From Mobula birostris (lineage: Eukaryota), in assembly GCF_030028105.1 (NCBI RefSeq), contig NC_092394.1, positions 28,130,752 to 28,194,751 on the forward strand: a stretch of DNA of 64,000 bases, given 5' to 3'. Shown here in pieces: positions 788 through 63,982 of this stretch. Position 1 is the stretch's first letter. Each line of letters starts with the position of its first letter. A program made the position numbers and the translations under genes. The notes below the pieces were generated by a model. It did no database searches. It was not told where the DNA came from and worked only from the letters and a program-made list of their open reading frames with translations.

Positions 788-892
788 GATTCTGTGCCTG
801 AAGAAAGGTGTCGTCCAGAAACGGGAACTGTGTACTCATTTCCATAGATGCTGCCTGAGCTGCCGAGTTCTTCCAGCATTTTGTGTGTGTAA
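788..892 (+). mobile_element. Degenerate PLE pseudo-LTR fragment
   Basis: ctgaaga...gaaac...ccatagatgctgcctgagctgccgagttcttccagcattttgtgtgt resembles the other PLE ends in the window. Confidence 0.65.
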
Positions 893-4469: not shown

Positions 4470-6285
4470 ACCTCAGGTTACCCATAGCCCTCTATTTTTC
4501 TAAGCTCCATGTACCTATCTAGGCGTCTCTTAAAAGACCCTATTGTATCTACCTCCACCACCGTCACCAGCAGCCTATTCCACCCACTCACCACTCTCCG
4601 CGTAAAAAACATCTCCTACTTGCAAGCACCTTAAAACTGTGCCCTCTCAAAGCTGATCCTCTTTTCCCCTTTTCAGCTCCACTCCACGGCCTTCTCCCTA
4701 TAACCTTGATGCCCTGACCAATCAAGAACCTATCAATCTCCGCCTTAAATACACCCAACGACCCGGCCTCCACAGCTGCCTGTGGTAACAAATACCACAA
4801 ATTCACCGCCCTTTGGCTAAAGAAATTTCCCTGCATCTCTGTTTTAAATGGATGCTCCTCTATCCCAAGGCTGTGTCCTCTTGTCCTAGACTCCCCCACC
4901 ATGGGAAACATCCTTTCCACATCTACTCTGTCTAAGCCTTTCAACATTCAAAAGGTTTCAATGAGATCTCCCCTCATCCTTCTAAATTCCAGTGAGTACA
5001 GACCCAGAGTCATCAAATATTCCTCATATGGTAACACTTTTATTCCCAGAATCATGCTTGTGAACCTCCTCTGAACCCTCTCCAATACTAGCACACCGTT
5101 TCTTTGATGAGGAACCCAGAACTGTTCACAATATTCAAGGTGAGGCCTCACCAGTGCCTTGTAAAGACTCAGCATCACATCCCTGCTCTTGTATTCGAGA
5201 CCACCTGAAATGGATGCTAACATTGTATTTACCTTCCTTACCATCAACTCAACCGCAAATTAACCTTTAGGCTGTTCTGCACAAGGATTCCCAAGTCCCT
5301 TTGCATCTCAGATTTTTGGATTTTCTCCCCTTTTAGCAAATAGTCTGCACAATTATTTCCTTTACCAAAGTACACGATAATGAATTTTCCTACATTGTAT
5401 TTCATTTGCCACTTTCTTGCCCATTCTCCTAATCTGTCTAAGTCCTTCTGCAGCCTTCATGTTTCCTCAACATTACCTGCAGCTGTACCAATCTTCGTAT
5501 CATCTGCAAACTCGTCAACAAAGCCATCTATCCCATCATCTAAATCACTGATATAAAGCATAAAAAGAAATGGTTCCAACACTGACCCCTGCGGAACACC
5601 ACTAGTCACTGGCAGCCAACCAGAAAAGGATCCTTTTATTCCCTCTTGCTGCTTCCTACCAATCAGTCATTGCCAGCAACTTTTCTGTAATACCATGGGC
5701 TCTTAACTTGGTAAGCAGCCTATGTATGGCACTTTAGCAAAGGCCTTCTGAAAATCCAAATACACAACATCTACCGCATTCACCTTATCTATCCTACTTG
5801 TAATCTTCCCAAAGAATACCAACAGATTTGTCAGGCAAGTTTTTCCCTTAAGGAAACCATGCTCACTTTGTCCTATCTTGTCCTGTGTCTCCAAGTACTC
5901 CACAACCTCATTCTTAACCATTGACTCTAACATCTTTCCAACTACTGAGGTCAGGCTAACTGGTCTATAATTTCCTTTCTGTTGCCTCCCTCCTTTCTTC
6001 CAGAGTGGAGTGACATTTGCAAATTTCCAGTCCTCTGCCACCATGCCAGAGTTCAATGATTCTTGAAAGATCATTACTAATGCCTCCACAATCTCTGCGA
6101 CTACCTCTTTCAGAACCCTAGGGTGCAGTTCATCGGGTCCCGGTTACTTAATGCACCCTTAGGTCTTTCAGTTTTTTGAGCACATTCTCCCTTGTAATAG
6201 TTACTGCACTCACTTCTCTTCCCTCACACCCTTCAACGCCTGGATACTGCTAGTGTCTTCCACAGTGAAGACTGATGCAAAACGT
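4470..6285 (-). mobile_element. CR1 LINE ORF2 RT region to 3' end (frameshifted)
   Basis: WKFANVTPLWKKG...GNYRPVSLTSVVGK...VDVVYLDFQKAF; LYKALVRPHLEYC; NFFSQRAVNLW. Confidence 0.95.
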
Positions 6286-6405: not shown

Positions 6406-6479
6406 AGGCACCGCTGAGATTCGAACTCAGGATCTCCTGTTTACTAGACAGGCGCTTTAACCAACTAAGCCACGGCGCC
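6406..6479 (-). tRNA. tRNA-Thr(AGT)
   Basis: 74-nt cloverleaf GGCGCCGTGGCTTAGTTGGTTAAAGCGCCTGTCT-AGT-AAACAGGAGATCCTGAGTTCGAATCTCAGCGGTGCCT; A/B boxes; T4 terminator at 6387-6390. Confidence 0.97.
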
Positions 6480-7172: not shown

Positions 7173-7246
7173 AGGCACCGCTGAGATTCGAACTCAGGAT
7201 CTCCTGTTTACTAGACAGGCGCTTTAACCAACTAAGCCACGGCGCC
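7173..7246 (-). tRNA. tRNA-Thr(AGT)
   Basis: Identical 74-nt copy; T4 at 7158-7161. Confidence 0.97.
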
Positions 7247-7539: not shown

Positions 7540-7613
7540 GGCGCCGTGGCTTAGTTGGTTAAAGCGCCTGTCTAGTAAACAGGAGATCCTGAGTTCGAAT
7601 CTCAGCGGTGCCT
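7540..7613 (+). tRNA. tRNA-Thr(AGT)
   Basis: Identical 74-nt copy, divergent from the 7173 copy; T4 at 7620-7623. Confidence 0.97.
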
Positions 7614-8375
7614 TCTTTATTTTCATTACTATTCTAACGTCGGATATGCTTCCTGAAATTCATATTGGTCAAGGCGTTTGGGGAGGTTTTAATTTGATCA
7701 AATATCACCTATTGTATGTATTTAAATGTATTTCATGAAAAATGAAGATCAGATCCAATTGATGTGTTAAAAAGAGGAATTACTATGGAGATAGAGCTTT
7801 ACCTGAATACATAAAACACTTTCTCTGATAAATTCAGAAATCTCCAATGTGGCTCACCAGCGGATATTTGCTGCACTCCTTCCCACCTTACCGGTGGTCC
7901 AGTTCTCGTAACCCCTTTCCACTCACCAGTATCCCCACTCTCATGCTCCCATCCCATCCACCGGGGCCCTAATTCCCACAGTCCATGGACACAACAGATT
8001 CCATCTGTCACGCTTCCTTGAAATTTACCCAGTTTCGTTCCCAAACTCTCCTCCAGTTTGATGCGAAGTTTATTCCCGTACTTCCCCTAAACCTCGTGAG
8101 TTCACGAGAACATTTGTCATTCTGCTGCGCAGCATCTGAAGACAGAGAAAAACCCCGTGTCAAAAAGTCAAAGCCGAGTTTATTGTCAGTTGCACAAGTT
8201 CGTGTATGCACAGGTGCAATGAAAACCCGACTTGCTGCAGGATCAAAGCCACGAAGCTTTTTAGAGAAGCAACATTCACATGTAAAACATAAATTATACA
8301 CAATTTCTAGAAGAAACAGCACAATTTGAACAAAAAAAAACTTCCATTGTAGTTCCAAGTGGCCATAGTGGTCAT

Positions 8376-8897
8376 AGACACAAGAAAATCTGCAGATGCT
8401 GGAAATCCAAGTAATTACACACAAAATTCTGGAGGATCTCAGCAGGTCAGGCAGCAAAGAGTAAACAGTCGACGTTTCAGGCCGACGAGAGAAAAAGACA
8501 GGAAGTCAGAGTAAGAAGGTGTAGGCCAGGGACGGGAGGAAGAAGTACACGGGTAGCAGGTGAAATCGGGAGAGGAGGAGGGTGAAGTTAAGAGGTGAAA
8601 TGTTGATTGGTGAAAGAGATAAAGGTCTGGAGAAGGGGGAATAGGAGAGGGTAAAATCCATGGAAAAAAAGGGAAGGGGAGGAGCACCAGAAGGAGATGA
8701 TGGGCAGATAAGGCGAGAGAGGGAAATGGGAATAGGGAACAGTGAAGGAGAAGTGAGGAGGGGGCCAATACCTGGAAGTTTGAGAAATCGATATTCACAC
8801 CATCAGGTTGGAGGCTACCCATAAGGTGTTACTCCTCCAACTGGAGTGTGGCCTCACCACGGCAGTAGAGGAGATGATGGATTGATAATGTCGGAAT
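8376..8897 (-). mobile_element. Penelope-like element 3' end (GIY-YIG C-terminus plus pseudo-LTR)
   Basis: GSLQPDGVNIDFSNF; pLTR with decayed hammerhead near 8467-8490 and a tail. Confidence 0.85.
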
Positions 8898-9396
8898 GGT
8901 GAACAAACTCCTCGCTGCAACCTCAGATAGTCAGGATGCATTGCCGCTTCTTCCTCCCCATCATTCTCAACACGGGTGTCTCCCAGGGCCATGTACTGAG
9001 CCCACTGCTGTACACTGTGCTCACATGTTCAAACACCCGAGTAATCACATTGCCAAGTTCGCAGACGATACGACAGATGATGACTCATCACCGACAGTGA
9101 TGAGATGCCCTAGAGAGAGGAGGCAGAAGAGCTCTGGTGCCAAGCAAATGCCCTCTTCCTTAATGTCAACAAGGCGAAGGAGATGGTTATCGACTTCAGG
9201 AGGACTCACACCACACACACCCTCCCCCCTTTACATTGACAGCACAGCAGTGGAAACAGCAAGCGGTTTCAAACACCTGGGAGTGCACATCTCACACAAC
9301 TTCTCCTGGTCCCAGAACACATCCTACAAAGTTCACCAATACCTCTACTTTCTGAGGAGCCTGAAAACAGCTGAACCATGCACATCCATACTCATG

Positions 9397-9629
9397 CAAC
9401 ACACATCAAAGTTGCTGGTAAACGCAGCAGGCCAGACAGCAGCTATAGGAAGAGGTACAGTCGACGTTTCAGGCCAAGACCCTTCGTCAGGACTAACTGA
9501 AAGAAGAGCTAGTAAGAGATTTGAAAGTGGGAGGGGGAGGGGGAGATCCAAAATGATAGGAGAAGACAGGAGGGGGAGGGATGGAGCCAAGAGCTGGACA
9601 GGTGATTGGCAAAACGGATATGAGAGGAT
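9397..9629 (-). mobile_element. PLE pseudo-LTR insertion with 10-bp TSD
   Basis: TSD CATACTCATG at 9387-9396 and 9630-9639; near-identical to the reverse complement of ~61770-62001. Confidence 0.9.
9459..9494 (-). ncRNA. Minimal type I hammerhead ribozyme motif
   Basis: Minus strand AGTC-CTGACGA-A-GGG(TCTTGG)CCT-GAAAC-GTC-GACT. Confidence 0.75.
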
Positions 9630-10084
9630 CATACTCATGACCTTTTACAAATGCACTTTATAGACGCACAAATCAATCTCTGTATATAAGTGCTATCTTA
9701 CGTGGTTATATTTATTATATATTACTATTACTGTATTCTTTATCTTTTGTGTGTGTTTTTGTGTGCTACATCAGATCCAGAGTAACAATTATTTTGTTCT
9801 CCTATGCACTTGCATACAGGAAATAAGATTAAACAATTTTGAATCTTGAACTAGGAGCAGGAGTAGGCCATTCAGCCTAATGTGTCTGTTCAATCACTTA
9901 TTAAAGAGTTTTGTTTCACCTCAGTGCCAGTGTTTCTTTTGTCTCTTGAATACAGCCAGTGACAACTCCCTTGGGTAGAGTGAATTGCAAAATTTACTGT
10001 CTTCTTTGCTTCTCTGTCTTTCAAAGACAACTGCCAATTTTTAGACTGACCCCCCAGTCAGTAAAAACATCAGCTCTGCAACTA

Positions 10085-10704: not shown

Positions 10705-10737
10705 TACACTATAAAACCTGATAAGCATTTTCTGATA

Positions 10738-11288
10738 ATTCCATGTCCCATTCCCATTCTGACATGTCTATCCACGGCCTCCTCTACTGTCAAGATGAAG
10801 CCACACTCAGGTTGGAGGAACAGCACCTTATATTCCATCTGGGTAGCCTCCAACCTGATGGCATGAACATTGACTTTAACTTCCGTTAATGCCCCACCCC
10901 ACCTCGTACCCCATCCGTTATTTATTTATCTTTTATTATTATGTATTTTTTTCTCTCTCTCCTTTTTCTCCCTCTGTCCTCACTATACTCCTTGCCCATC
11001 CTCTGGGCTTCCCCCGTCCCCCCTTTCTTTCTCCCTAGGCCTCCTGTCCCATGATCCTCTCATATCCCTTTTGTCAATCAACTGCCCAGCTCTTGGCTCC
11101 ATCCCTCCCCCTCCTGTCTTCTCCTACCATTTCAGATCTCCCCCTCCCCCTCCCACTTTCAATTCTCTTACTAGCTCTTCTTTCAGTTAGTCCTGATGAA
11201 GGGTCTCGGTCCAAAACATCGACTGTACCTCTTCCTATAGATGCTGCCTGGCCTGCTGCGTTCACCAGCAATTTTTATGTTTGTTGCT
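10738..11288 (+). mobile_element. Penelope-like element 3' end
   Basis: Paralogue of 61456-62001; GIY-YIG C-terminus; hammerhead at 11189-11224 inactivated (GAAAC to AAAAC). Confidence 0.9.
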
Positions 11289-12033: not shown

Positions 12034-12895
12034 TGTCATGAGCCCTGCCCCACGTTTCTTTCAGATCTGCCTCAGGACCAGATTTTCCACTGCTGCCTCG
12101 AGCTCCAAGTCTGCCATGTGCTTTTCAGACCTGCCCCGAGAGGTCGAGCTCCAGGTTCTGCCTTGCGTTTTTCAGACCGGCCTCGAGAGGTCGAGCTCCA
12201 AGTCTGCCATGTGCTTTTCAGACCTGCCCCGAGAGGTCGAGCTCCAGGTTCTGCCATGAGCTTTTCAGACCTGCCCCAAGAGGTCGAGCTCCAGGTTCTG
12301 CCTTGCGTTTTTCAGACCGGCCTCGAGAGGTCGAGCTCCAAGTCTGCCATGTGCTTTTCAGACCTGCCCCGAGAGGTCGAGCTCCAGGTTCTGCCTTGCG
12401 TTTTTCAGACCGGCCTCGAGAGCTCCCTGGGTTGTCAGGTGCTGGCCTTAGAGGTAGAGGTACTGTCATGAGCCCTGTGGTTTGCCATAGAGCATTGAGC
12501 TTTTAGGGGTTTTTTTTGTATTTACTAATCAATATCTTAACTAGAATTGTTAAGCCCTTGTGTTTCTTGGTTTAATCTTGTCAAGTAAGTTAGGGCTGAC
12601 ACATGTTTCCCGCATTCTATGATTATTTAAAGTCTCTGGCTCAGTGCTCTGATGAAGGTCATTGTGTCAGAGAGAGTGAACTGTTTCGTGCTGTTGCTCA
12701 GTCGCTCCTCTGAGGCTCTGTTGGTATTCTGGTGTCTAAACTCTTATTTCTGTCTCTTCCTGAGGATCCTGCCATTCCTCTGCTCCTAGTTCGAGTCATG
12801 AACTTCTGGGTTGAATGGGTGCCAGCAACCTCCATGACAGAGAAAGCAGAGGAATTCTGCACCTGGGTCCAGTCCTTCGAGAGCGTGCCATGACA
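12034..12895 (+). mobile_element. Non-autonomous Gypsy-like LTR element: 14-bp 5' LTR remnant, minisatellite interior, PPT, 3' LTR (12464-12895)
   Basis: TGTCATGAGCCCTG at 12034 and 12464; purine tract AGAGGTAGAGGTAC directly before 12464; CATGACA end at 12895; TATTTAA and CTGCACCTGGGTCC inside the LTR. Confidence 0.7.
12098..12422. repeat. 46/47-bp GC-rich minisatellite, 7 units (A B A C B A B)
   Basis: Units start with TCGAGCTCC at 12098, 12144, 12191, 12237, 12284, 12331, 12377. Confidence 0.97.
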
Positions 12896-13879
12896 TTCTC
12901 CCATCATTAGAAGCATCCTCTCCATATCCATTTTACATAGGTCATTCAATATTCAGAAGGTTTCAATGAGATACTCATCTAATTCTTTTAAACTCCAGTA
13001 AGTCCCCAAATATTCCTCATATGTTATCCTTTTTATTCTGGGGATCATTTTCGTAAGCTTCCTCCAGACCTTCTCCAGCGCTAGCACTTCCTTTCTTAGG
13101 TAATGGGCCCAAAACTGCTCACAATACTCCAAACTTGGTCTTGCCATTGCCTTTGAAGACTCAGCATTACATCCCTACTTTTATATTCCAGTCTTTTTGA
13201 AACAAATGCTAAAGAAGTCTTCTGCCAAAGAGTTTTTCTCTGCTCTGCCTGAATCTTTTATATATTAATAAACTCATTGAGATCTCTTCTCAACCTCTTC
13301 TGTTCCAAGAAACCAACTCTAGCTAAAATCACTCATCCTTGGAATTATTCTAGTAAAGTGCTTCTGGAACCTTCATAAGGAGTGGCTTTCCAGAAATGGA
13401 CACAATATTCCAATTCTAGTCAAACCAGTGTCTTTATCACAGATCAGTTTCTTGAATCTTGACTATTCATCAATGTCCTGATGAAGGGTCTTGATTTGAA
13501 ACACCAAATATTTATTTCCCACCATAGATACAGCTTGACTTGCTGATTTCCTCCTGGATTTTGTACGTGTTGCTCAATATATTACTTGTGTTTGGTGTCT
13601 TAATCTTCAGTCTTCTTCAGTATACTTCAGGAAATCATCTGCATCTAATGGAAGTATTTTCTTTTCTTGAGATAATGTAACCATGTACTTAATTTACTTC
13701 CCTAACATTCCGTGACATCTCCTAAGAAGAGGTCTGAGCATACAGTCTCACAAAACTTTATGATACACTATTGATATTACCATATGGAACTGGAGACAAT
13801 TCAGCTCATCAACTATATGTTAGTGCCCAGAGCAATCCTTTTAATTCCAATCCTCATCTTAATTTGCTCTAATGTATCC

Positions 13880-14250
13880 CCTCTCACATGCCCATTACCA
13901 AGACACTCCTGTCATTGGGTCCCCTTCCCCTAAGGTTCCAATCTGCTTTACCTCCCTTATTTGATTCCAAGTTCCACCTTCCTTTCCCATCTGATTCCAT
14001 TATCTTCAGCCTTCTGTTGCCTCCACCAATCATTTTCCAGCCTCTATTTCTCATTCCACACTTCTCTCTGCCTAAAACACCTCTCCTCACCTAGATCCAC
14101 CCTCCCTTCACCTTTTTATGTTGGAGACCTCGCCTTTATCTTTCAGTCTAGATGAAGGGTATCAAACCGAAACACCGACAGTCCATTTTTCTCCGGAGAT
14201 ACTACCTGAACCTTCAGCACTTTATTTTTCGCTCTAAATTCCAACATCAT
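13880..14250 (+). mobile_element. Old PLE pseudo-LTR fragment
   Basis: Pyrimidine-rich tract, then cagtctagatgaagggtatcaaaccgaaacaccgac (decayed hammerhead). Confidence 0.6.
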
Positions 14251-14886
14251 GTGTGCCAATTAACAGTCTGAATGCCTTAACAGCCATCTCCACTCTGGCT
14301 AATTTATACTAGTCAATTAATTTAACAGCCCAAATCCCTTTGGATCTGTATCATTGCAAATTGTATCATGCAATTGAAATGATATCACGTATCATTGAAA
14401 TGGCTTTGCCTCAGTTTTTATTCCAAATTAGAATGAAACTGAACTATGCCTTGAGCATCTTGTATAATCAACATTTCTACAGGAGCGTTCCTGCTGTGAA
14501 ATGAGGCGCCATTCTGTAAACTAGATGAAATATTGGGGATGCTGGAAACAGAAACAATAACAGGAAATGGCGGAAACACACAGCAGGTCAGGTGATATCA
14601 ATTTTCTAACAACTTTCCATATTAACATGAAAACTGACCCTTCTGCTTCCCCATTTGAAGCTGAAGTGAAGAGAACCGAAACTATGCTTTATTCCTTTGT
14701 CCATCATATGATGCAATGAGCTTAACTGTGCAGCATCACATGAGGCAATGTTTTTAAAACACAGGAGACATGAGAACCTGGAGCAAAGAGATTCAGCAGA
14801 TTGCGCATCATTTACCGGAGAAAGGGAATTGTCAGCATTTTTGATTGAAACTCTACATCAGGAAACAGTTTTATATTGTTCTAGAA

Positions 14887-15051
14887 CAGGGGTGGCCAAC
14901 CTTTTACATTCCATGCATCAACTTTTTCACTCACGAGTTCAAACGCGCCATACAACTTTTGTACCCTCATTCAATTCTTGTAAAAATGTTAATATAGAAC
15001 TCGTGTGTGAAAAAATTGACGCATGGAATGTAAAAGCTTGGCCACCCCTTG
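14887..15051. mobile_element. hAT (Charlie-type) MITE
   Basis: TIR CAGGGGTGGCCAACCTTTTACATTCCATGC; 8-bp TSD TTCTAGAA at 14879-14886 and 15052-15059. Confidence 0.92.
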
Positions 15052-15129
15052 TTCTAGAAGGTTCTTTAAACATTTCCATATTTCCTTACAGCATGGGAAT
15101 ATGTAGGCCTCAAAGTAATCCCATTCTCC

Positions 15130-15385: not shown

Positions 15386-18272
15386 AATATTGAACTATGT
15401 TTGCATATTATACAAGACTTGTTAATAATGGATCACTTTAGAGAAACATCTGATGCACACCGAACACACTTACAAAAAATAAGAGAACGTTTTCAAAGAT
15501 AAGGAATAATGAAGAGAGATTGCCAAGACTCTTGTTATTTTTTTTTTCTGAAACATTGGAAGCCAAAAGGAGATTTAAGTGTTTTAATTGGAGGCTGAAG
15601 GAAGATCTAACTGAAATATTTGAGGCCCTCCATTGTTCAGGGTTGACCATAGATGTTGCATCCTAGTTATGGTATCGTCAGTTGATTCGCAAGCCAGGGC
15701 AGTATGATTAGCTGTTGTCCATGCTTCTGGCTCCCTCTCTTCCAAGCAGTTGATGAATCCAAAGGAATGGCAGAGACCGGTACAGTTTGGCACCAGCAGC
15801 ATTGCAGGAGTTGCTGATCAGTTTTGATCTCAATGTAGGACTACCTTAGGGACTGCAGCTCCGGATTTTTCCTCAGGGTTTACTCTTGAAGCCTTCCCCA
15901 TGAGTGGTATAGCTGCAAGGCAGTGGAGGTTTGAGATCAGTTTCTTTCTCCTAGATGTGCTGATGAGTTCCATCTGCTCGAAGCGACTGGTTTTAAGGCA
16001 CCAGTAACCTACCTTTGCCTCACGTCAACAGGAACGGTTGCGCCTAACTTGGCTGGATTAAGTTGTCAGAGTCTATTTGAGACACACATAGGTAGCGGGT
16101 GCTTAACCCCACTACCACCCACCCCAAGCTATGACAATCTTAAAGAACCATTAAGGTAAACTAAAACTCCCAGGTATTGTGCATTTGGAATATGAAATTT
16201 CCTGAGAGCATAAATTTAAGATAATATCTAGGATAGGGGAGAGTTGAATGGACACAGGTAGGTGGTGAGGATTTGGCTTATAAATACTATTCAGAGTTTG
16301 TAGGAGCCCAGACTGATCATTTGCAGGTAAAGTGGGGGGCAAAACCCTTCATTTTAACAAGTAGGATGAGAAAATGTTGTTACTTCAGCTCTCCTCCAGC
16401 AGCCATGTATACACTGGGCTGAATAACCTATGGTGCAAATTTCTGTGATTCTACTACTGTGATAATTTACACACTTACAGCACAGAAACAGATTTTATCT
16501 GATTTGTAGCATTGTGTACGTCTTTCTATTTTGTTCGTTAGTTCATAAAGACGTCATTCTGCAGCTTTGTCACCCACTTGAATGTTATCTAACATTCATG
16601 CAATTTACAACCACTACCATGTTGTAGTCAGTTCCATGTTCTCATCATTCTGCGAGATTATCACATCTCTAGTCCTGTTTCTGAGACAAGAGCACTATTC
16701 AGAGCTTCACCGTGAGACTGTTGTACTGTCAAAAGTGAAGACATTCAGCATGCCTGCCCTCTTATCTAGCATCAAGCACCTCCGTAAAGAGCATGGACCA
16801 ACCCTTAAAGTCCTCAGATAATACTTATCCCATAAACAAGTTTTAACCTCATTCTTTTAAAATCATAAATGTGATTATGAGCACTTTACTGATCAAACTG
16901 GCTGCTCTTTCCTCTACCAGTGGTTATGCATTTTAAAAATATTAGTGGGCTACAATACCCAAAGATATCCTGAAAGTGTATTGGATGCTGATTAAATGCA
17001 AATTTAGTCAAATTCCATTCTCAGCACATCTGCTTTTCAAGTGGACCCTTAGCTTTCTCAGTACTTTGTATGCCTCAGTGTCTGGGGTAGAGAGCCTGCC
17101 ATAGCAGCGCTTATAAATGAAACTGCAGTTGCAGGAAATCTTAAAATTAAAATGCAGTACTAGAAATACTCAACCAGTCAATCAGACAGTATCCAGGCAA
17201 AAGGAACAGTCAATGTTCAGGCCTAAACCCCTTTATAACTACTTCTCTTAGTAATCGAGATTGTGAGAAAAATTAACAAGCCACTCTTCACAATTATTGC
17301 ATTCATTTATACTGTTACCATTATATAGAATAAAAATATTCTTATTAAACAAAATGAAGAATTATTTATATTTTCCAGCAGAACAGTGAATTTCGCGAAA
17401 ACACCCAACTTTCTAGCTACTAAGCTTATTATTGAGAACATGCTTTAAACTTGTGGCATTTGTCAGCTTATACATACCACTTGTCCTACTTTGAAGCGTT
17501 GAACAGGGAACTATGGAGAAGTGCAAGCCAGACCTGATAACACAATACAATATTGTGCACAGGAACTAAAAAGGCAGAATACCCATTTCAAAAGCCAACA
17601 GTTTCTTTTTCCCCAAAAGTTTAAATACATTTTGTTGGCCGAAGACAGGTGGGAAAGGAAGTGAAAATAGCATGCCAGAATGATCATACCCGAAGACATA
17701 GTTCAGAAAGTGGCCAATTCATATTTAGCACCACTAGGAGTCTTCCACAAGATACTAGGATGGCATATGCCTATTAGATTGGAAGATGTGCACATACATT
17801 GCCCTCATTTTGTTACAAACTTTTAGGACATTCAACACCTGCAGGTCAGGTAACTAAGTAGTTCCATTACAGCCTCACTGTGATCTAAAGTAACTTCTGA
17901 ATCTTTCACACACATACACTTGCCCAATCTTGCTGAATGAAGCGCAATTTTGATGAAATTAGATTAAGATGCATATTTTACTTCCAGAATATTTATGTTC
18001 ATCAGATATTATAAAATTCAAACAATCAATTTTGAGTTTAGTTAAAAATTTAAACTTTAATCCAGCATTTCTAAACTCTACACACCATTGCACAAGAAAA
18101 TTCAGTTTTAATACAGATAAATGTTTAAAGTAGCTCAATTTTCACTAAGTAGATGCCAGTTAAAGGGAAATATTTAACACAAAACTACCATCTCACAGAT
18201 TATCACAAGATGTGGGTTGAACTTGTACTATGAACAAAAGCTGAAATTTAACAGAGGTCACGAGAATTAAAA

Positions 18273-18325: not shown

Positions 18326-57764
<39,439 letters not shown>

Positions 57765-59192: not shown

Positions 59193-59212
59193 AAACAGAA
59201 GGAATAACAAGG

Positions 59213-59381
59213 TAAACATGAGGAATTCTGCAGATGCTGGAAATTCAAGCAACACACATCAAAGTTGCTGGTGAACGCAGCATCTCTAGGAAGAGGTACA
59301 GTCGACGTTTCCGGCCCTAAACATCGACTGTACCTCTTCCTAGAGATGCTGCCTGACCTGCTGCGTTCACCAGCAACTTTG
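59213..59381. mobile_element. Collapsed fold-back PLE (two inverted pLTR ends)
   Basis: Palindrome 59259-59382; 13-bp TSD AGGAATAA(CA/TG)AGG at 59200-59212 and 59382-59394. Confidence 0.85.
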
Positions 59382-60609
59382 AGGAATAATGAGGCAGCGC
59401 TCATGGATTTATGGACCACTGAGAAATTTGATAACGAGGGGCTAGAAGTTGTTCCTCTATCATTGAATGTAGATCTTTAGGTTCCAATACCTCCTCCACT
59501 TTTCCCCTCTCCTTTCCAACCCTTAATTTACTGCTCCCTGTGAGATGCTAGTTGTATGTTTTGTACTAGACAGCAATACATCTATATAACTTATCTGCCA
59601 TTTTCTTATTTTCCATTAATTCCCGAGACTCAACTTCTATAGGCCAAATCCTTATTAAAAATTATTTTTTTAAAATATCTAAACACTTTTTACATTCTTT
59701 GTTAGCTTTATCTCACACTCTATTCTTTCATTACCTTTTTCAGTCTTTCTTTGTTACTCTTGTATTCTGACATGTCACCAATCTCTGTGTAACCATTCTT
59801 GTTTTAGCTTTTATAGTTCACTACAGATGGTGGGCATGAAAGGTTCTGAAATTTTCTGCCATTTAATTTTCTTCATTAATCCACGTATAAGTCAGTCATT
59901 ATTTTGTTAAGTAAGCACTTTCAAGTTTAGTTTATTGCCATTAATTATACAGGTGTACCAACAAATGAAACAATGTTCCTCCAGATTAAGGCATACAACA
60001 CAGTACATATACCTCACACTCACAACATATAAAATAATTTTACTCACAAATAATAAGGCATATTTACAACAAAAGATAAAAGAAAACAGTGTAATACTAC
60101 TAGCGCTTCATACTTGATGAGACCTAGATGGTGGCAGGAAGTTCAGTTGTTTCCCATCCTGACAGTTTTTGTCTTAATGCAGTGATGCCTCCTACCTGAT
60201 GGTAGGGGGTTCAAAGGGATTGTTGGACGGATGGGAGGGAATCACTGATGCAGCGTATGCAGCGCTCCTGCTAAATAATTTCTGAAGGCTGGAACCAATT
60301 AACCAGAATCCACTGTACTCAATATTCAACTTAAACAACTTTTGACACGTGTCCATTGCCCTCTTGTACTAGCAGTGTTTCTCCAAAAACGTCAGTTAGT
60401 CCTTTACATAACTTTTCTGCATAAATCGTTTAATCTGTAAGTAGACAATGCATTCTCTTTTGAAAATTCTAATGGCACCTACTTCTACCACCCTTGCAAT
60501 GTATGCGCCTTTTACATTCAGCATGCTAAGGACCAAATCTATTATGTCTGGTTATTCTTTTCTATGATAATTATTTTTGGAGCGGGAGATTGCTAACTAG
60601 GTAACCCAA

Positions 60610-61055
60610 CCTACCGATCGGAGTTGCCACAATGAACTAGGCCGCCATGCAGCCCGGAACACCAGGCCCAACCCTTCACGGGTACACTTTAACCCCTAGC
60701 CCGCCAGCACTCAACAAGCTTAGAAACTGAATTCCGATCCGTGCAACACACCTCGGCCTTGCAACCGAGCGAACGTCAGTATAAACTTCACCGGACGCCA
60801 CTCATCAGCCCGCCGTTAACTCCAGCAACCGAACGAGGCACCTCCGGACGGCACACGGATGTGGGTAGGCGGGTCTTCCTGTTCCGAGCCTCACAGCCTC
60901 CCGTCCCCATTGGTAGCATGTTTGTGATTGATATGTTCTCCAACGACTGCAAACATGCTGAAGTTGAGTTTGTGTGGAGGATGTGAGGAAATTTTGCTGG
61001 AAATTTGTAGTTTACAGAGAGAGGAATGGACAAGTCCGGGCGGGGGCGGGGGGAG
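60610..61055 (-). promoter_or_regulatory. CpG-rich PRPF8 promoter / non-coding first exon region
   Basis: CpG-rich non-repeat segment upstream of the ATG exon. GC boxes at 61038-61053, CCAAT at 60909-60913, tandem ETS-like GGAA sites at 60875-60886. Candidate donors at 60791 (CCG|GTGAAG) and 60614 (TCG|GTAGGT). Exon 1 limits not resolved. Confidence 0.65.
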
Positions 61056-61398
61056 CATTTCAGAGGTCAGTAATATTGAAAAGTGGAGGTAATAAAGGTA
61101 GGGAATTAGAAATGGGGGGAGGGATCTGAAGATAATGGCTTTGATCTTTCAAATATTGAACTAGAGGAAGTTTTTCCTCCTCCCATACTGGAACTTGATT
61201 TAAACAGCAGCCTGCACACCTTGACCCTCCTCAACTAAATGACTAGCTTTTGTTTTGCTGACATTGAGGACAAGATTGTTATGATACCATGCCACTAGGT
61301 TCTCTTATCTTTGCCGTGAACTTCATCTCATTGTTACAACACACATCAAAGTTGCTGGTGAACGCAACAGGCCAGGCAGCATCTCTAGGAAGAGGTAC

Positions 61399-61434
61399 AG
61401 TCGACGTTTCGGGCCGAGACCCTTCGTCAGGACT
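61399..61434 (-). ncRNA. Minimal type I hammerhead ribozyme motif in inverted PLE pseudo-LTR
   Basis: Minus strand AGTC-CTGACGA-A-GGG(TCTCGG)CCC-GAAAC-GTC-GACT. Confidence 0.8.
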
Positions 61435-61903
61435 AACTGAAGGAAGAACTAGTAATTCCACATCCCATTCCCATTCTGACATGTCTACCCACGGCCTTCT
61501 CTACTGTAAAGATGAAGCCACACTCAGGTTGGAGGAACAACACCTTGTATTCCGTCTGGGTAGCCTCCAACCTGATGGCATGAACATTGACTTCTCTAAC
61601 TTCCGCTAATGCCCCACCTCACCCTCGTACCCCATCCGTTATTTATTTATATACACACATTCTTTCTCTCTCTCTCCTTTTTCTCCCTCTGTCCCTCTGA
61701 CTATACCCCTTGCCCATCCTCTGGGTTTTCCCCCCGCCCCCTTTTCTTTCTCCCTGGGCCTCCTGTCGCATGATCCACTCATATCTCTTTTGCAAATCAA
61801 CTGTCCAGCTCTTGGCTCCATCCTCCCCCTCCTGTTTTCTATCATTTTGGATCTTCCCCTCCCCCTCCCACTTTCAAATCTCTTACTAGCTCTTCCTTCA
61901 GTT

Positions 61904-61939
61904 AGTCCTGACGAAGGGTCTTGGCCCGAAACGTCGACT
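61904..61939 (+). ncRNA. Minimal type I hammerhead ribozyme motif in PLE pseudo-LTR
   Basis: AGTC-CTGACGA-A-GGG(TCTTGG)CCC-GAAAC-GTC-GACT: core boxes CUGANGA and GAAA, GUC cleavage triplet, stem I AGUC/GACU, stem II GGG/CCC, palindromic ACGU stem III. Confidence 0.8.
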
Positions 61940-62593
61940 GTACCTCTTCCTAGAGATGCTGCCTGGCCTGCTGCGTTCACCAGCAACTTTGATGTGTGTT
62001 GCTTGAATTTCCAGCATCTGCAGAATTCCTCGTGTTTACATTCATCTCATTGTTATTTGGGATTCAGCCCATTGCAGTGGTGTTACCTGCGAATTTATAT
62101 ATGGATTTAAACCAATATGGCCATGTAGTTGTGAATGTACAGGGAGTAGAGATGGGCCGAACACACTGCTTTGTGGGCACCAGTGTTGAGGATAATCATG
62201 GTGAAGGAGTTGCTTCAGAATCAGGTTGGTTATCACCAGCATGTGACATGATATTTGTTAATAACTTAGCAGTCCTATCTTTACTTATCCATGAGTGAGG
62301 AAGATAAGGATCCAGTTGCAAAGGGAGTTGTTGAATCCCAGGTCTAAGAAGTTGGAGATAAATTATCTTGGAATTAAGGTATTGAGAGCAGAGATAAAAG
62401 TCAATAAACAATAATATAATGTAGGTCTTTTAACTGTCTGGGTGCCCCGGAAATGAGTGTAGCCCCAGGAAGACGGTGCCCACCTTAGGCTTTGGCAGTA
62501 GGCGAAATACAGAGGGCCGAGGCTGGAGTTGATGTGTGTCATAACCAGCCTCTTGAAGCATTTCATGATGCTGGATGTCAGAATCACTGTGTT

Positions 62594-62950: not shown

Positions 62951-63849
62951 GAGAGAGAGATCAGTCAAATCAGGCAGATGGGACGGACTCAGGTGGAGGA
63001 TTTTGGCCGGTGCATAGTAGTTGAACACCAGTTTGTCATCCACTCTTGGGTGTCAACGCTTTAATCTGGCTCGACGTTTAATCGGCGCAGAGTGGTGGAG
63101 ATAAACACCGGTTTGTTAACACTTTCAGATCTCAATGCTTTGATCTTTAAGTGGTCATTAAGGCATACTACCTATTTTTCTTAGGTACTGGGATGGCGCC
63201 AACGAGCAATGCGACCGAGAGTAATGTCCTTCAGGCGGTTCACGAAACTTCTTTCACTTCTGTTACGTCTTCCTTTTTCCTTCAAATGTGATTCTGCTAC
63301 TGCTGGAACCTGCGATCTACATTTGGGTGATGCGTTTTTGGACCGATTGAGCGATCTTACACGTAATGATTTTTACTCTTCATGTTTATGAAGGATGTAA
63401 GTAATAAAGTCAAGTCAAGTCTTTGCTGTCTCTGAGGAGGTTCGATGAGGTTTCGAGGGTAGAGTGCAGACTCAAGGCCAAGAAGCCTGCGGACAGGACG
63501 CTAGTCTGTGATCAACTCCATTTCTCGCCGATTAAAACGTTGAGGAAGATTGAAATCAATGAGGATGAGAGCGGAAGGAAGGCTGGCATGTATTCAGTGA
63601 CATCTACATATGTTCAGTCTCTCTATCCTTCTCGCTCTTTGCTGCCGCAAGATGGTGCCAGGGTCCTGGGTCTTGGGCAAGGCTTAATCAACATGATTTA
63701 TGGATTGGACTCCGTAGTTCATGGAATGATGTGTTTCTGGTTTCTGGTTACTCCTTTTTCTTCGTTGCTATTTTGTGCAATTTTGATTGGGGCGGCCTGC
63801 AGATAATGAATGTTGCGGTGCTGGACTGAACCGGAATGAGCTGAACTGA

Positions 63850-63982
63850 AACAAGAGGAATTCTGCAGATGCTGGAAATTCGAGCAACACACATCAAAGT
63901 TGCTGGTGAACGCAGCAGGCCAGGCAGCATCTCTAGGAAGAGGTACAGTCAACGTTTCAGGCCGAGACCCTTCGTCAGGACT
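63850..63982 (-). mobile_element. PLE pseudo-LTR end with tail
   Basis: Near-identical to the reverse complement of 61904-62037. Confidence 0.88.
63947..63982 (-). ncRNA. Minimal hammerhead motif with GUU triplet
   Basis: Minus strand AGTC-CTGACGA-A-GGG(TCTCGG)CCT-GAAAC-GTT-GACT. Confidence 0.65.

Follow-up and report, generated by a model that had tools for sequence, protein, structure and literature searches.

Minimal type I hammerhead ribozymes, and their place in the pseudo-LTRs (pLTRs) of Penelope-like elements (PLEs), were defined by Cervera and de la Pena 2014 (PMC4209133). The parts of that survey drawn on here describe single-copy dispersal by the thousand in vertebrate genomes (approximately 4,000 copies in coelacanth and 9,000 in Xenopus), opposite-strand pairs 100-700 bp apart, and a Schistosoma motif that does not cleave as a monomer and cleaves weakly as a dimer or trimer; neither its Table S1 nor its 56-motif alignment includes a cartilaginous fish. 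In the relevant sections of Craig et al. 2021 (PMC8557442), a CX2-5CXXC linker is given as the mark of Neptune and Nematis elements, and Naiad elements are described as spreading without canonical hammerheads. For the PAc element of Anolis carolinensis, the passages of Frangieh et al. 2024 (PMC11167929) concerning the ribozyme report that cleavage occurs only with the element protein, that catalytic mutants insert normally in vitro, and that RNA-seq shows no ends at the cleavage site; the PLE tail is explained there by two internal reverse-transcription starts. Finally, the available text of Li, Clavereau, Pollet 2026 (bioRxiv 10.64898/2026.07.22.740005) places only Neptune and Poseidon in vertebrates and reports pLTR-derived retrozymes in one chondrichthyan.

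Here, we consider a 36-nt motif at 61904-61939(+) of a 64-kb window (the whole stretch of DNA analysed), which on the evidence of its sequence and surroundings is a minimal type I hammerhead in the 3' pLTR of a Neptune-type PLE of a batoid ray. Its copies are a textbook instance of the class described in 2014. What they add is a ray Neptune-type family among the PLEs with minimal hammerheads. The group does not figure in the 2014 survey, and the motif escapes detection by Rfam. The earlier note on this DNA had suggested that the class is known and the family possibly uncharacterised, and this agrees with what we found: class and architecture were published in 2014, and no description of the ray family appeared in the literature searched (most subscription papers and repeat databases fall outside that search).

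Direct inspection confirmed the sequence of the 36-mer. Compared with it, the copies at 61399-61434(-) and 9459-9494(-) each differ at one base, and that at 63947-63982(-) differs at three and carries U at position 17 (a GUU triplet). We applied a generic minimal-hammerhead descriptor (stem I of at least 3 bp, CUGANGA, an optional extra base, stem II of at least 3 bp, GAAA, a minimal helix III, and UH) to the window and obtained exactly four matches, namely these four copies, each of which retains 11 of 11 core bases (CUGANGA, GAAA, and U16.1) as well as H17. In 200 dinucleotide shuffles of the window, the mean number of matches was 0.005 and the maximum was 1; even a single match is thus rare, as only one of the 200 shuffles gave one. 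The four intact copies do not amount to four independent observations, because they descend from a common ancestor.

To place these copies in their family, a profile was built from six window copies (ribozyme plus tail) and run on the window. It recovered all 13 sites of the earlier note, the nine decayed ones at E values from 7e-41 to 1e-3, and in addition two half-copies absent from that list, at 49733(+) and 59311(+); seven weaker matches (E 0.018 to 9.9) are excluded from every count. The family total in the window is therefore 15 remnants in 13 insertions, with intact motifs in 4 remnants from 3 insertions. Decay has taken several routes. The CUGANGA half is absent at 8467, 59300, 59311, and 49733, and has gone through decay at 17208; the 11189 copy has a G12A change and has lost the palindrome; U16.1 is lost at 798, 13474, 14145, and 14840; and the 43555 copy retains 11 of 11 core bases and not the palindrome. 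A covariance model from 10 window copies gave nothing new below E 0.1. An Rfam scan of the window returned 15 matches at E up to 5, none of them a hammerhead, so that a standard RNA-family scan overlooks these motifs.

Several claims of the earlier note can be settled from these results. The four intact cores and the nine decayed sites stand as given, the latter all being family remnants; both catalytic boxes, the NUH site, a stem I of 4-5 bp, and an ACGU palindrome with no loop are present in all four intact copies; the expected cut after GUC was placed at the right coordinate (with C3 at 61908, C17 falls at 61935); and the expectation that standard annotation would miss the motifs agrees with the Rfam result. 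The figure of about 13 copies is sound as a list of sites, but the remnants number 15 in 13 insertions and only four are intact. The proposed 3-bp stem II is better drawn with 4 bp, as set out below. Coordinates of all features are collected in Table 1.

Table 1. Features of the focal insertion, its ribozyme, and the other family copies in the window (positions relative to C17 where signed).
Feature	Position	Strand	Evidence or remarks
Left copy of 15-bp target-site duplication	61322-61336	.	Exact repeat of 62041-62055
Short inverted pLTR copy lacking the tail, from -52 to +66 relative to C17	61337-61455	-	119 bp, 97.5% identical to 61883-62001
Intact minimal hammerhead within inverted pLTR	61399-61434	-	Descriptor, core check
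Last 51 codons and stop of PLE ORF (GIY-YIG endonuclease C-terminus); 5' truncation point of the insertion	61454-61609	+	92% to P0001, E 5.7e-23
Pyrimidine-rich 3' UTR / pLTR body	61610-61903	+	Sequence; common to 10736-11288 and 9392-9632
Minimal type I hammerhead	61904-61939	+	Descriptor, folding, pair counts
Stem I	61904-07 with 61936-39	+	
Core C3-A9	61908-14	+	
Extra unpaired A before stem II	61915	+	
Stem II	61916-19 with 61924-27	+	
G12-A14	61928-30	+	
Palindrome ACGU (helix III without loop)	61931-34	+	
C17	61935	+	
Segment from ribozyme to first 3'-end cluster	61940-62001	+	6/14 aligned copies end at +57 to +71
PLE tail, ~38 nt, at only one of the insertion's ends	62002-62040	+	4/14 copies end at +103 to +116; bounded by duplication
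Right copy of 15-bp target-site duplication	62041-62055	.	
Young short copy with tail, beginning at stem I of its intact hammerhead (63947-63982, GUU)	63849-63982	-	
Young truncated copy without tail; intact hammerhead 9459-9494; 10-bp duplication	9392-9632	-	
Truncated copy that retains the endonuclease end; defective hammerhead at 11189-11224 (G12A, no palindrome)	10736-11288	+	
Miniature inverted pair; two 3' half-ribozymes, no catalytic 5' half; 8-bp duplication	59209-59385	.	
Older internally deleted copy in PRPF8 intron; RT-thumb remnant and decayed hammerhead 43555-43590	43456-44154	-	tblastn with P0001, E 2e-21
Older copy retaining the endonuclease end; ribozyme 5' half deleted	8375-8903	-	
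Old decayed copy	797-891	+	
Old decayed copy	13475-13575	+	Profile
Old decayed copy	14136-14246	+	Profile
Old decayed copy, weak	14793-14863	-	Profile, E 1.4e-3
Old decayed copy, core lost, weak	17123-17231	-	Profile, E 4e-4
Old 3' half-copy in PRPF8 intron, absent from the earlier list	49732-49812	+	Profile, E 2e-11

The hammerheads at 61399 and 61904 lie 505 bp apart on opposite strands and belong to one insertion, because a single 15-bp duplication encloses both; the 3' end of the 61904 copy lies at about +105 from C17. The placement in a Penelope-like pLTR of a fish, as originally proposed, is borne out by the combination of endonuclease end, 3' UTR, inverted pLTR, tail, and target duplication. 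The window holds fragments only: three copies with the endonuclease end, one with an RT-thumb remnant, and no full-length element, and hence a tandem pLTR-ORF-pLTR arrangement and transcript ends are not visible there. A frame is open from the ribozyme through the downstream segment, at 61913-62040(+), with an ATG in the core where N7 is U. By analogy it could be an ORF start as in the Anolis element, whose ORF starts in stem II according to the ribozyme passages of PMC11167929; the ray ORF start was not located in our search of fetched proteins, as none of the PLE proteins begins with the 61913-62040 frame and the search for the start gave only two exonised gene models.

Of 11 candidate proteins, 9 match the 51 codons at 61454-61606; the top matches come from Mobula hypostoma (92%), Hypanus sabinus (76-85%), and Rhinoraja longicauda (73%), a pattern that suggests a batoid host and most probably a myliobatiform ray. 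The Mobula hypostoma protein, P0001, has YIDD as its RT motif, followed by a CX4CXXC linker; its GIY-YIG domain scores E 5e-4, which is below Pfam's curated cut-off. When P0001 served as the query of a profile search, 18,649 proteins were retrieved with E values no higher than 0.001. Among seven of its relatives that were scanned, five have RVT_1 plus GIY-YIG, one GIY-YIG only, and one nothing. The CX2-5CXXC linker occurs in P0001, P0002, P0004, and P0006, and linker plus DKG-type patterns are found in 30 of 30 among the listed relatives of 700-1100 aa (with the linker elsewhere in one). The nearest long relatives are 40-47% identical, and no full-length ORF of the ray family is among the recovered sequences; the EN+ PLE ORF (RT plus C-terminal GIY-YIG, upstream of the pLTR) is thus recognised through relatives. 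Pfam searches with eight window frames left the five PLE-related ones without a match, assigned two to RVT_1 from unrelated LINE remnants, and left the other one unmatched. We take the element to be Neptune-type because the linker marks Neptune and Nematis and only Neptune and Poseidon are reported in vertebrates, so that the choice between Neptune and Nematis follows from the linker and the published vertebrate distribution and not from a tree. RT, linker, C-terminal GIY-YIG, 5' truncation, inverted pLTR, and a 30-40 bp tail at one end are all shared with Neptune EN+ PLEs as presented in the relevant sections of PMC8557442, whereas PAc is a Poseidon element, from a clade described without the linker.

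Pieces of the element occur in gene models of four batoid species, which is consistent with abundance and is no measure of it. The models in question (P0003, P0007, P0159, and P0160, for an ATP synthase subunit, a neuromedin-U receptor, STARD3NL, and CoA synthase) include translated element pieces, through either exonisation or annotation error.

At the level of RNA anatomy (positions follow the standard hammerhead numbering), helix I is open with 4-5 bp and stem II consists of 4 bp closed by a C-U-Y-G loop, with one unpaired A ahead of it. Four pairs are preferred over three because, among 10 copies, five have U-G and four have U-A at the fourth position; the G10.1-C11.1 pair is G-C in two of the four intact copies and G-U in the other two. 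As in the consensus presented in the 2014 survey, the motif is of type I, has CUGANGA followed by one unpaired base, a stem II opening with G-C, a short stem I, and GAAA followed by a loopless palindrome, and it lies in a pLTR, mostly singly in truncated copies. The Acropora Neptune entry of that survey shares the core, the 4-bp stem II, and the palindrome with the ray motif; the ray stem II lies at the short end of the range given there.

Folding calculations indicate how such a motif would behave by itself. In the best monomer fold, stems I and II are kept and G5-A6-C7-G8 pairs with C15.2-G16.2-U16.1-C17, closing the core; the probability of the open fold is approximately 1e-3 in three of the intact 36-mers, reaches 1e-2 in the GUU copy, and falls when flanks are added. 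For dimers, the double hammerhead has an energy of -14.7 kcal/mol, whereas a non-catalytic dimer reaches -33.9 and a pair of separate monomers -23.8, so that nearest-neighbour energies, which ignore tertiary contacts, disfavour the active dimer. The copies at 61399 and 61904 are inverted, and therefore one transcript carries one sense and one antisense copy, able to pair with each other; when the insertion is folded in its entirety, the sense ribozyme ends up in a 119-bp duplex with the antisense copy, whichever strand is transcribed. An active dimer of these two copies was considered and rejected, since they lie on opposite strands.

The ends of the copies carry information on how they were inserted. 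When 14 copies were aligned to the 61904 copy, six had 3' ends at +57 to +71 and four at +103 to +116 after C17, while the remaining four, all old, were too diverged to place. These two clusters (10 of the 14 copies) are about 38 nt apart, which corresponds to the 30-40 bp PLE tail, and the tail is found at one end only in both inverted insertions (61337-62040 and 59209-59385). Not one of the 14 aligned copies starts at +1 or ends at the cut site, which argues that insertion templates were uncut at the 3' ribozyme. Both properties, a hammerhead upstream of two reverse-transcription starts that define the tail and the lack of genomic ends at the cut site, are shared with PAc as described in the corresponding passages of PMC11167929.

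The 5' boundaries are more varied. Two young insertions, at 10737(+) and 61454(+), share a boundary at -481 from the cut site, at an AT-rich spot internal to the endonuclease, and an older copy, at 8903(-), starts at -467; the common boundary may mean that truncation favours this site, or it may delimit a non-autonomous unit of approximately 550-590 nt. Further starts lie at -165, -52, -31, and -12. For the copies at 63982, 14145, 13475, 797, 17230, and 49732, the aligned 5' boundary coincides with the ribozyme or falls within it (-31 to -12), with a sharp edge in the young 63947 copy. The ribozyme may be a point where reverse transcription stalls, and in the old copies the boundary may instead be an alignment drop-off. 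In the miniature pair at 59209-59385, the two half-ribozymes are joined at a four-base palindrome within stem II, which suggests template switching within the ribozyme stem.

Is the motif itself maintained? Comparing five old copies with the 61904 copy, 47 of 55 core positions are identical as against 150 of 259 downstream (Fisher p 1e-4), and old-versus-young identity is 85% in the core, 73% in stem I, 63% in stem II, and 58% in the flank. This test is biased because some of the old copies were found through the core. A profile of the tail only recovers four old copies; in the two of these where neither half is missing, 21 of 22 core bases persist. Stems give a different picture: pairing of stems I and II in 10 window copies (82.5% of cells paired) is not above shuffles (156/500 and 165/500), a two-sided change occurs at one pair only, and RNAalifold on the 10 copies gives a weak, different structure with no covariation term. 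The check on conservation and covariation proposed in the earlier note thus came out divided for the window copies, with an excess of core over flank conservation that carries an ascertainment bias, and stem covariation no higher than in shuffles. Apparent covariation of N7 with 16.2 (C-G versus U-A) was rejected as evidence, as both changes are those expected from CpG deamination, an established process. Taken together, we infer from these comparisons that the motif is probably constrained in the active lineage.

The explanation that we favour, at a probability of roughly 80%, is that of a Neptune-type pLTR hammerhead with dimeric or protein-assisted cutting, insertion from uncut templates, and silent copies in the window. 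Where an active element has the tandem arrangement pLTR-ORF-pLTR, its two motifs, lying on the same strand, would pair through their four-base palindromes and so build each other's helix III. The element protein would probably assist, and a slow cut after C17 would trim multimeric transcripts; self-cleavage of the ray motif after C17 is accordingly predicted, by analogy with its relatives, to be slow and either dimeric or protein-assisted. Insertion would use RNA uncut at the 3' ribozyme, with reverse transcription beginning about 66 or 105 nt downstream and mostly stopping early, scattering short 3' fragments. The window copies would be such fragments, single or inverted and with no same-strand partner in the element, and are most likely silent passengers, decaying largely at CpG sites. 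A young, dense family accompanied by several older subfamilies is good material for asking what PLE hammerheads do.

The most serious competitor to this explanation, which we regard as a minority possibility, is that the motif does not act by cleavage and is instead kept as a structural RNA element (one example would be a site of binding or folding for the RT-endonuclease, close to where reverse transcription starts) or is a vestige riding along with the element. The absence of boundaries at the cut site in all 14 aligned copies and the unfavourable folding of the active dimer fit such a role, as do the Anolis catalytic mutants that insert normally with no RNA-seq ends (PMC11167929) and the Naiad elements that spread without canonical hammerheads (PMC8557442), so far as the sections used describe them; yet the strongest conservation between old and young copies falls on the catalytic bases and not on the stems alone (85% in the core), and related motifs are reported to cleave as dimers or with protein in the relevant parts of PMC4209133 and PMC11167929. 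That the short copies form a non-autonomous, pLTR-derived family of approximately 550-590 nt spreading by itself (SINE-like or a non-LTR retrozyme) seems to us unlikely. The shared -481 boundary of two young insertions, with an older one at -467, and the retrozymes in one chondrichthyan (available text of bioRxiv 10.64898/2026.07.22.740005) speak for it, against which stand the other starts at -165, -52, -31, and -12, the RT sequence in one copy, and the lack of any head-to-tail repeat, none having appeared in the window self-comparison or the profile matches. Retrozymes as described in that text resemble the ray copies in having a type I hammerhead in pLTR-related sequence and in being depleted from genes, but they are head-to-tail tandems, whereas the ray copies are dispersed, variably truncated, and in some cases accompanied by coding remnants. 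Chance likeness to a hammerhead inside a repeat is scarcely credible: the lack of an Rfam hammerhead match, the common ancestry that makes the copies a single observation, and the lack of significant covariation would be compatible with it, but it is largely refuted by the features of the motif (a descriptor match in only 1 of 200 shuffles) and by its position, exactly where PLEs are reported to carry such motifs in the survey's account (PMC4209133).

A different question is whether dispersed copies retain activity once transcribed with host genes, so that they would cut pre-mRNAs by way of cis or trans dimers and be selected against in genes; their significance would be greater if this were proved. 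The window allows a limited view of it through PRPF8, a minus-strand gene running from approximately 57791 to 18329, whose exons were recognised by eye (7 of 8 tested match Prp8 domains). Its coding span makes up 62% of the window, yet only 2 of 13 insertions lie within it, neither of them intact (binomial p 9e-4, or 0.002 including the probable first intron, in a test of one gene done after seeing the data and counting exons in the span). This depletion, the four intact cores in 64 kb, and one Mobula gene model that contains the translated motif are what such activity would predict. Repeats are generally depleted in genes, however, every intact copy lies outside the PRPF8 coding span, and folding disfavours the active state, and we consider host-transcript activity improbable.

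The earlier note had further drawn from the local copies a very large genomic population of potentially self-cleaving motifs. The motif class behind this claim is real, and the 2014 survey had already recorded single, dispersed minimal hammerheads by the thousand in individual vertebrate genomes, as the counts cited from it indicate (PMC4209133); the extrapolation is weakened by the small intact fraction (4 of 15), the inverted pair, the locked monomer, and the weak activity of published relatives. Scaling four intact copies in 64 kb to a 3.68-Gb genome (the size of the red stingray assembly) gives 60,000-590,000, with the proviso that one window is not a sample; if typical, the local density is far above the 4,000 and 9,000 given for coelacanth and Xenopus in the sections of that survey used here. 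A bolder reading, in which batoid genomes would hold some 100,000 intact, near-identical hammerheads (at least 10 times published vertebrate counts) whose inter-copy dimers cut pre-mRNAs and are purged from genes, while the core lock silences single copies until a partner or protein arrives, strikes us as very improbable.

The focal insertion itself lies just upstream of PRPF8, outside the coding span and a few hundred bases from a CpG-rich stretch at approximately 60250-61000, which is a probable CpG-island promoter of PRPF8. Elsewhere in the window, three tRNA-Thr(AGT) genes of the same sequence are found at 6406-6479, 7173-7246, and 7540-7613 (two on the minus strand, one on the plus). Two long palindromic elements, at 23857-24213 and 14879-15059, which match themselves as inverted repeats over about 357 and 181 bp, are probably miniature DNA transposons. 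Decayed LINE remnants lie at 4689-6143, 45985-47178, and 26431-27378, two of their frames matching RVT_1, and a tandem repeat with a unit of approximately 93 bp occupies 12098-12425.
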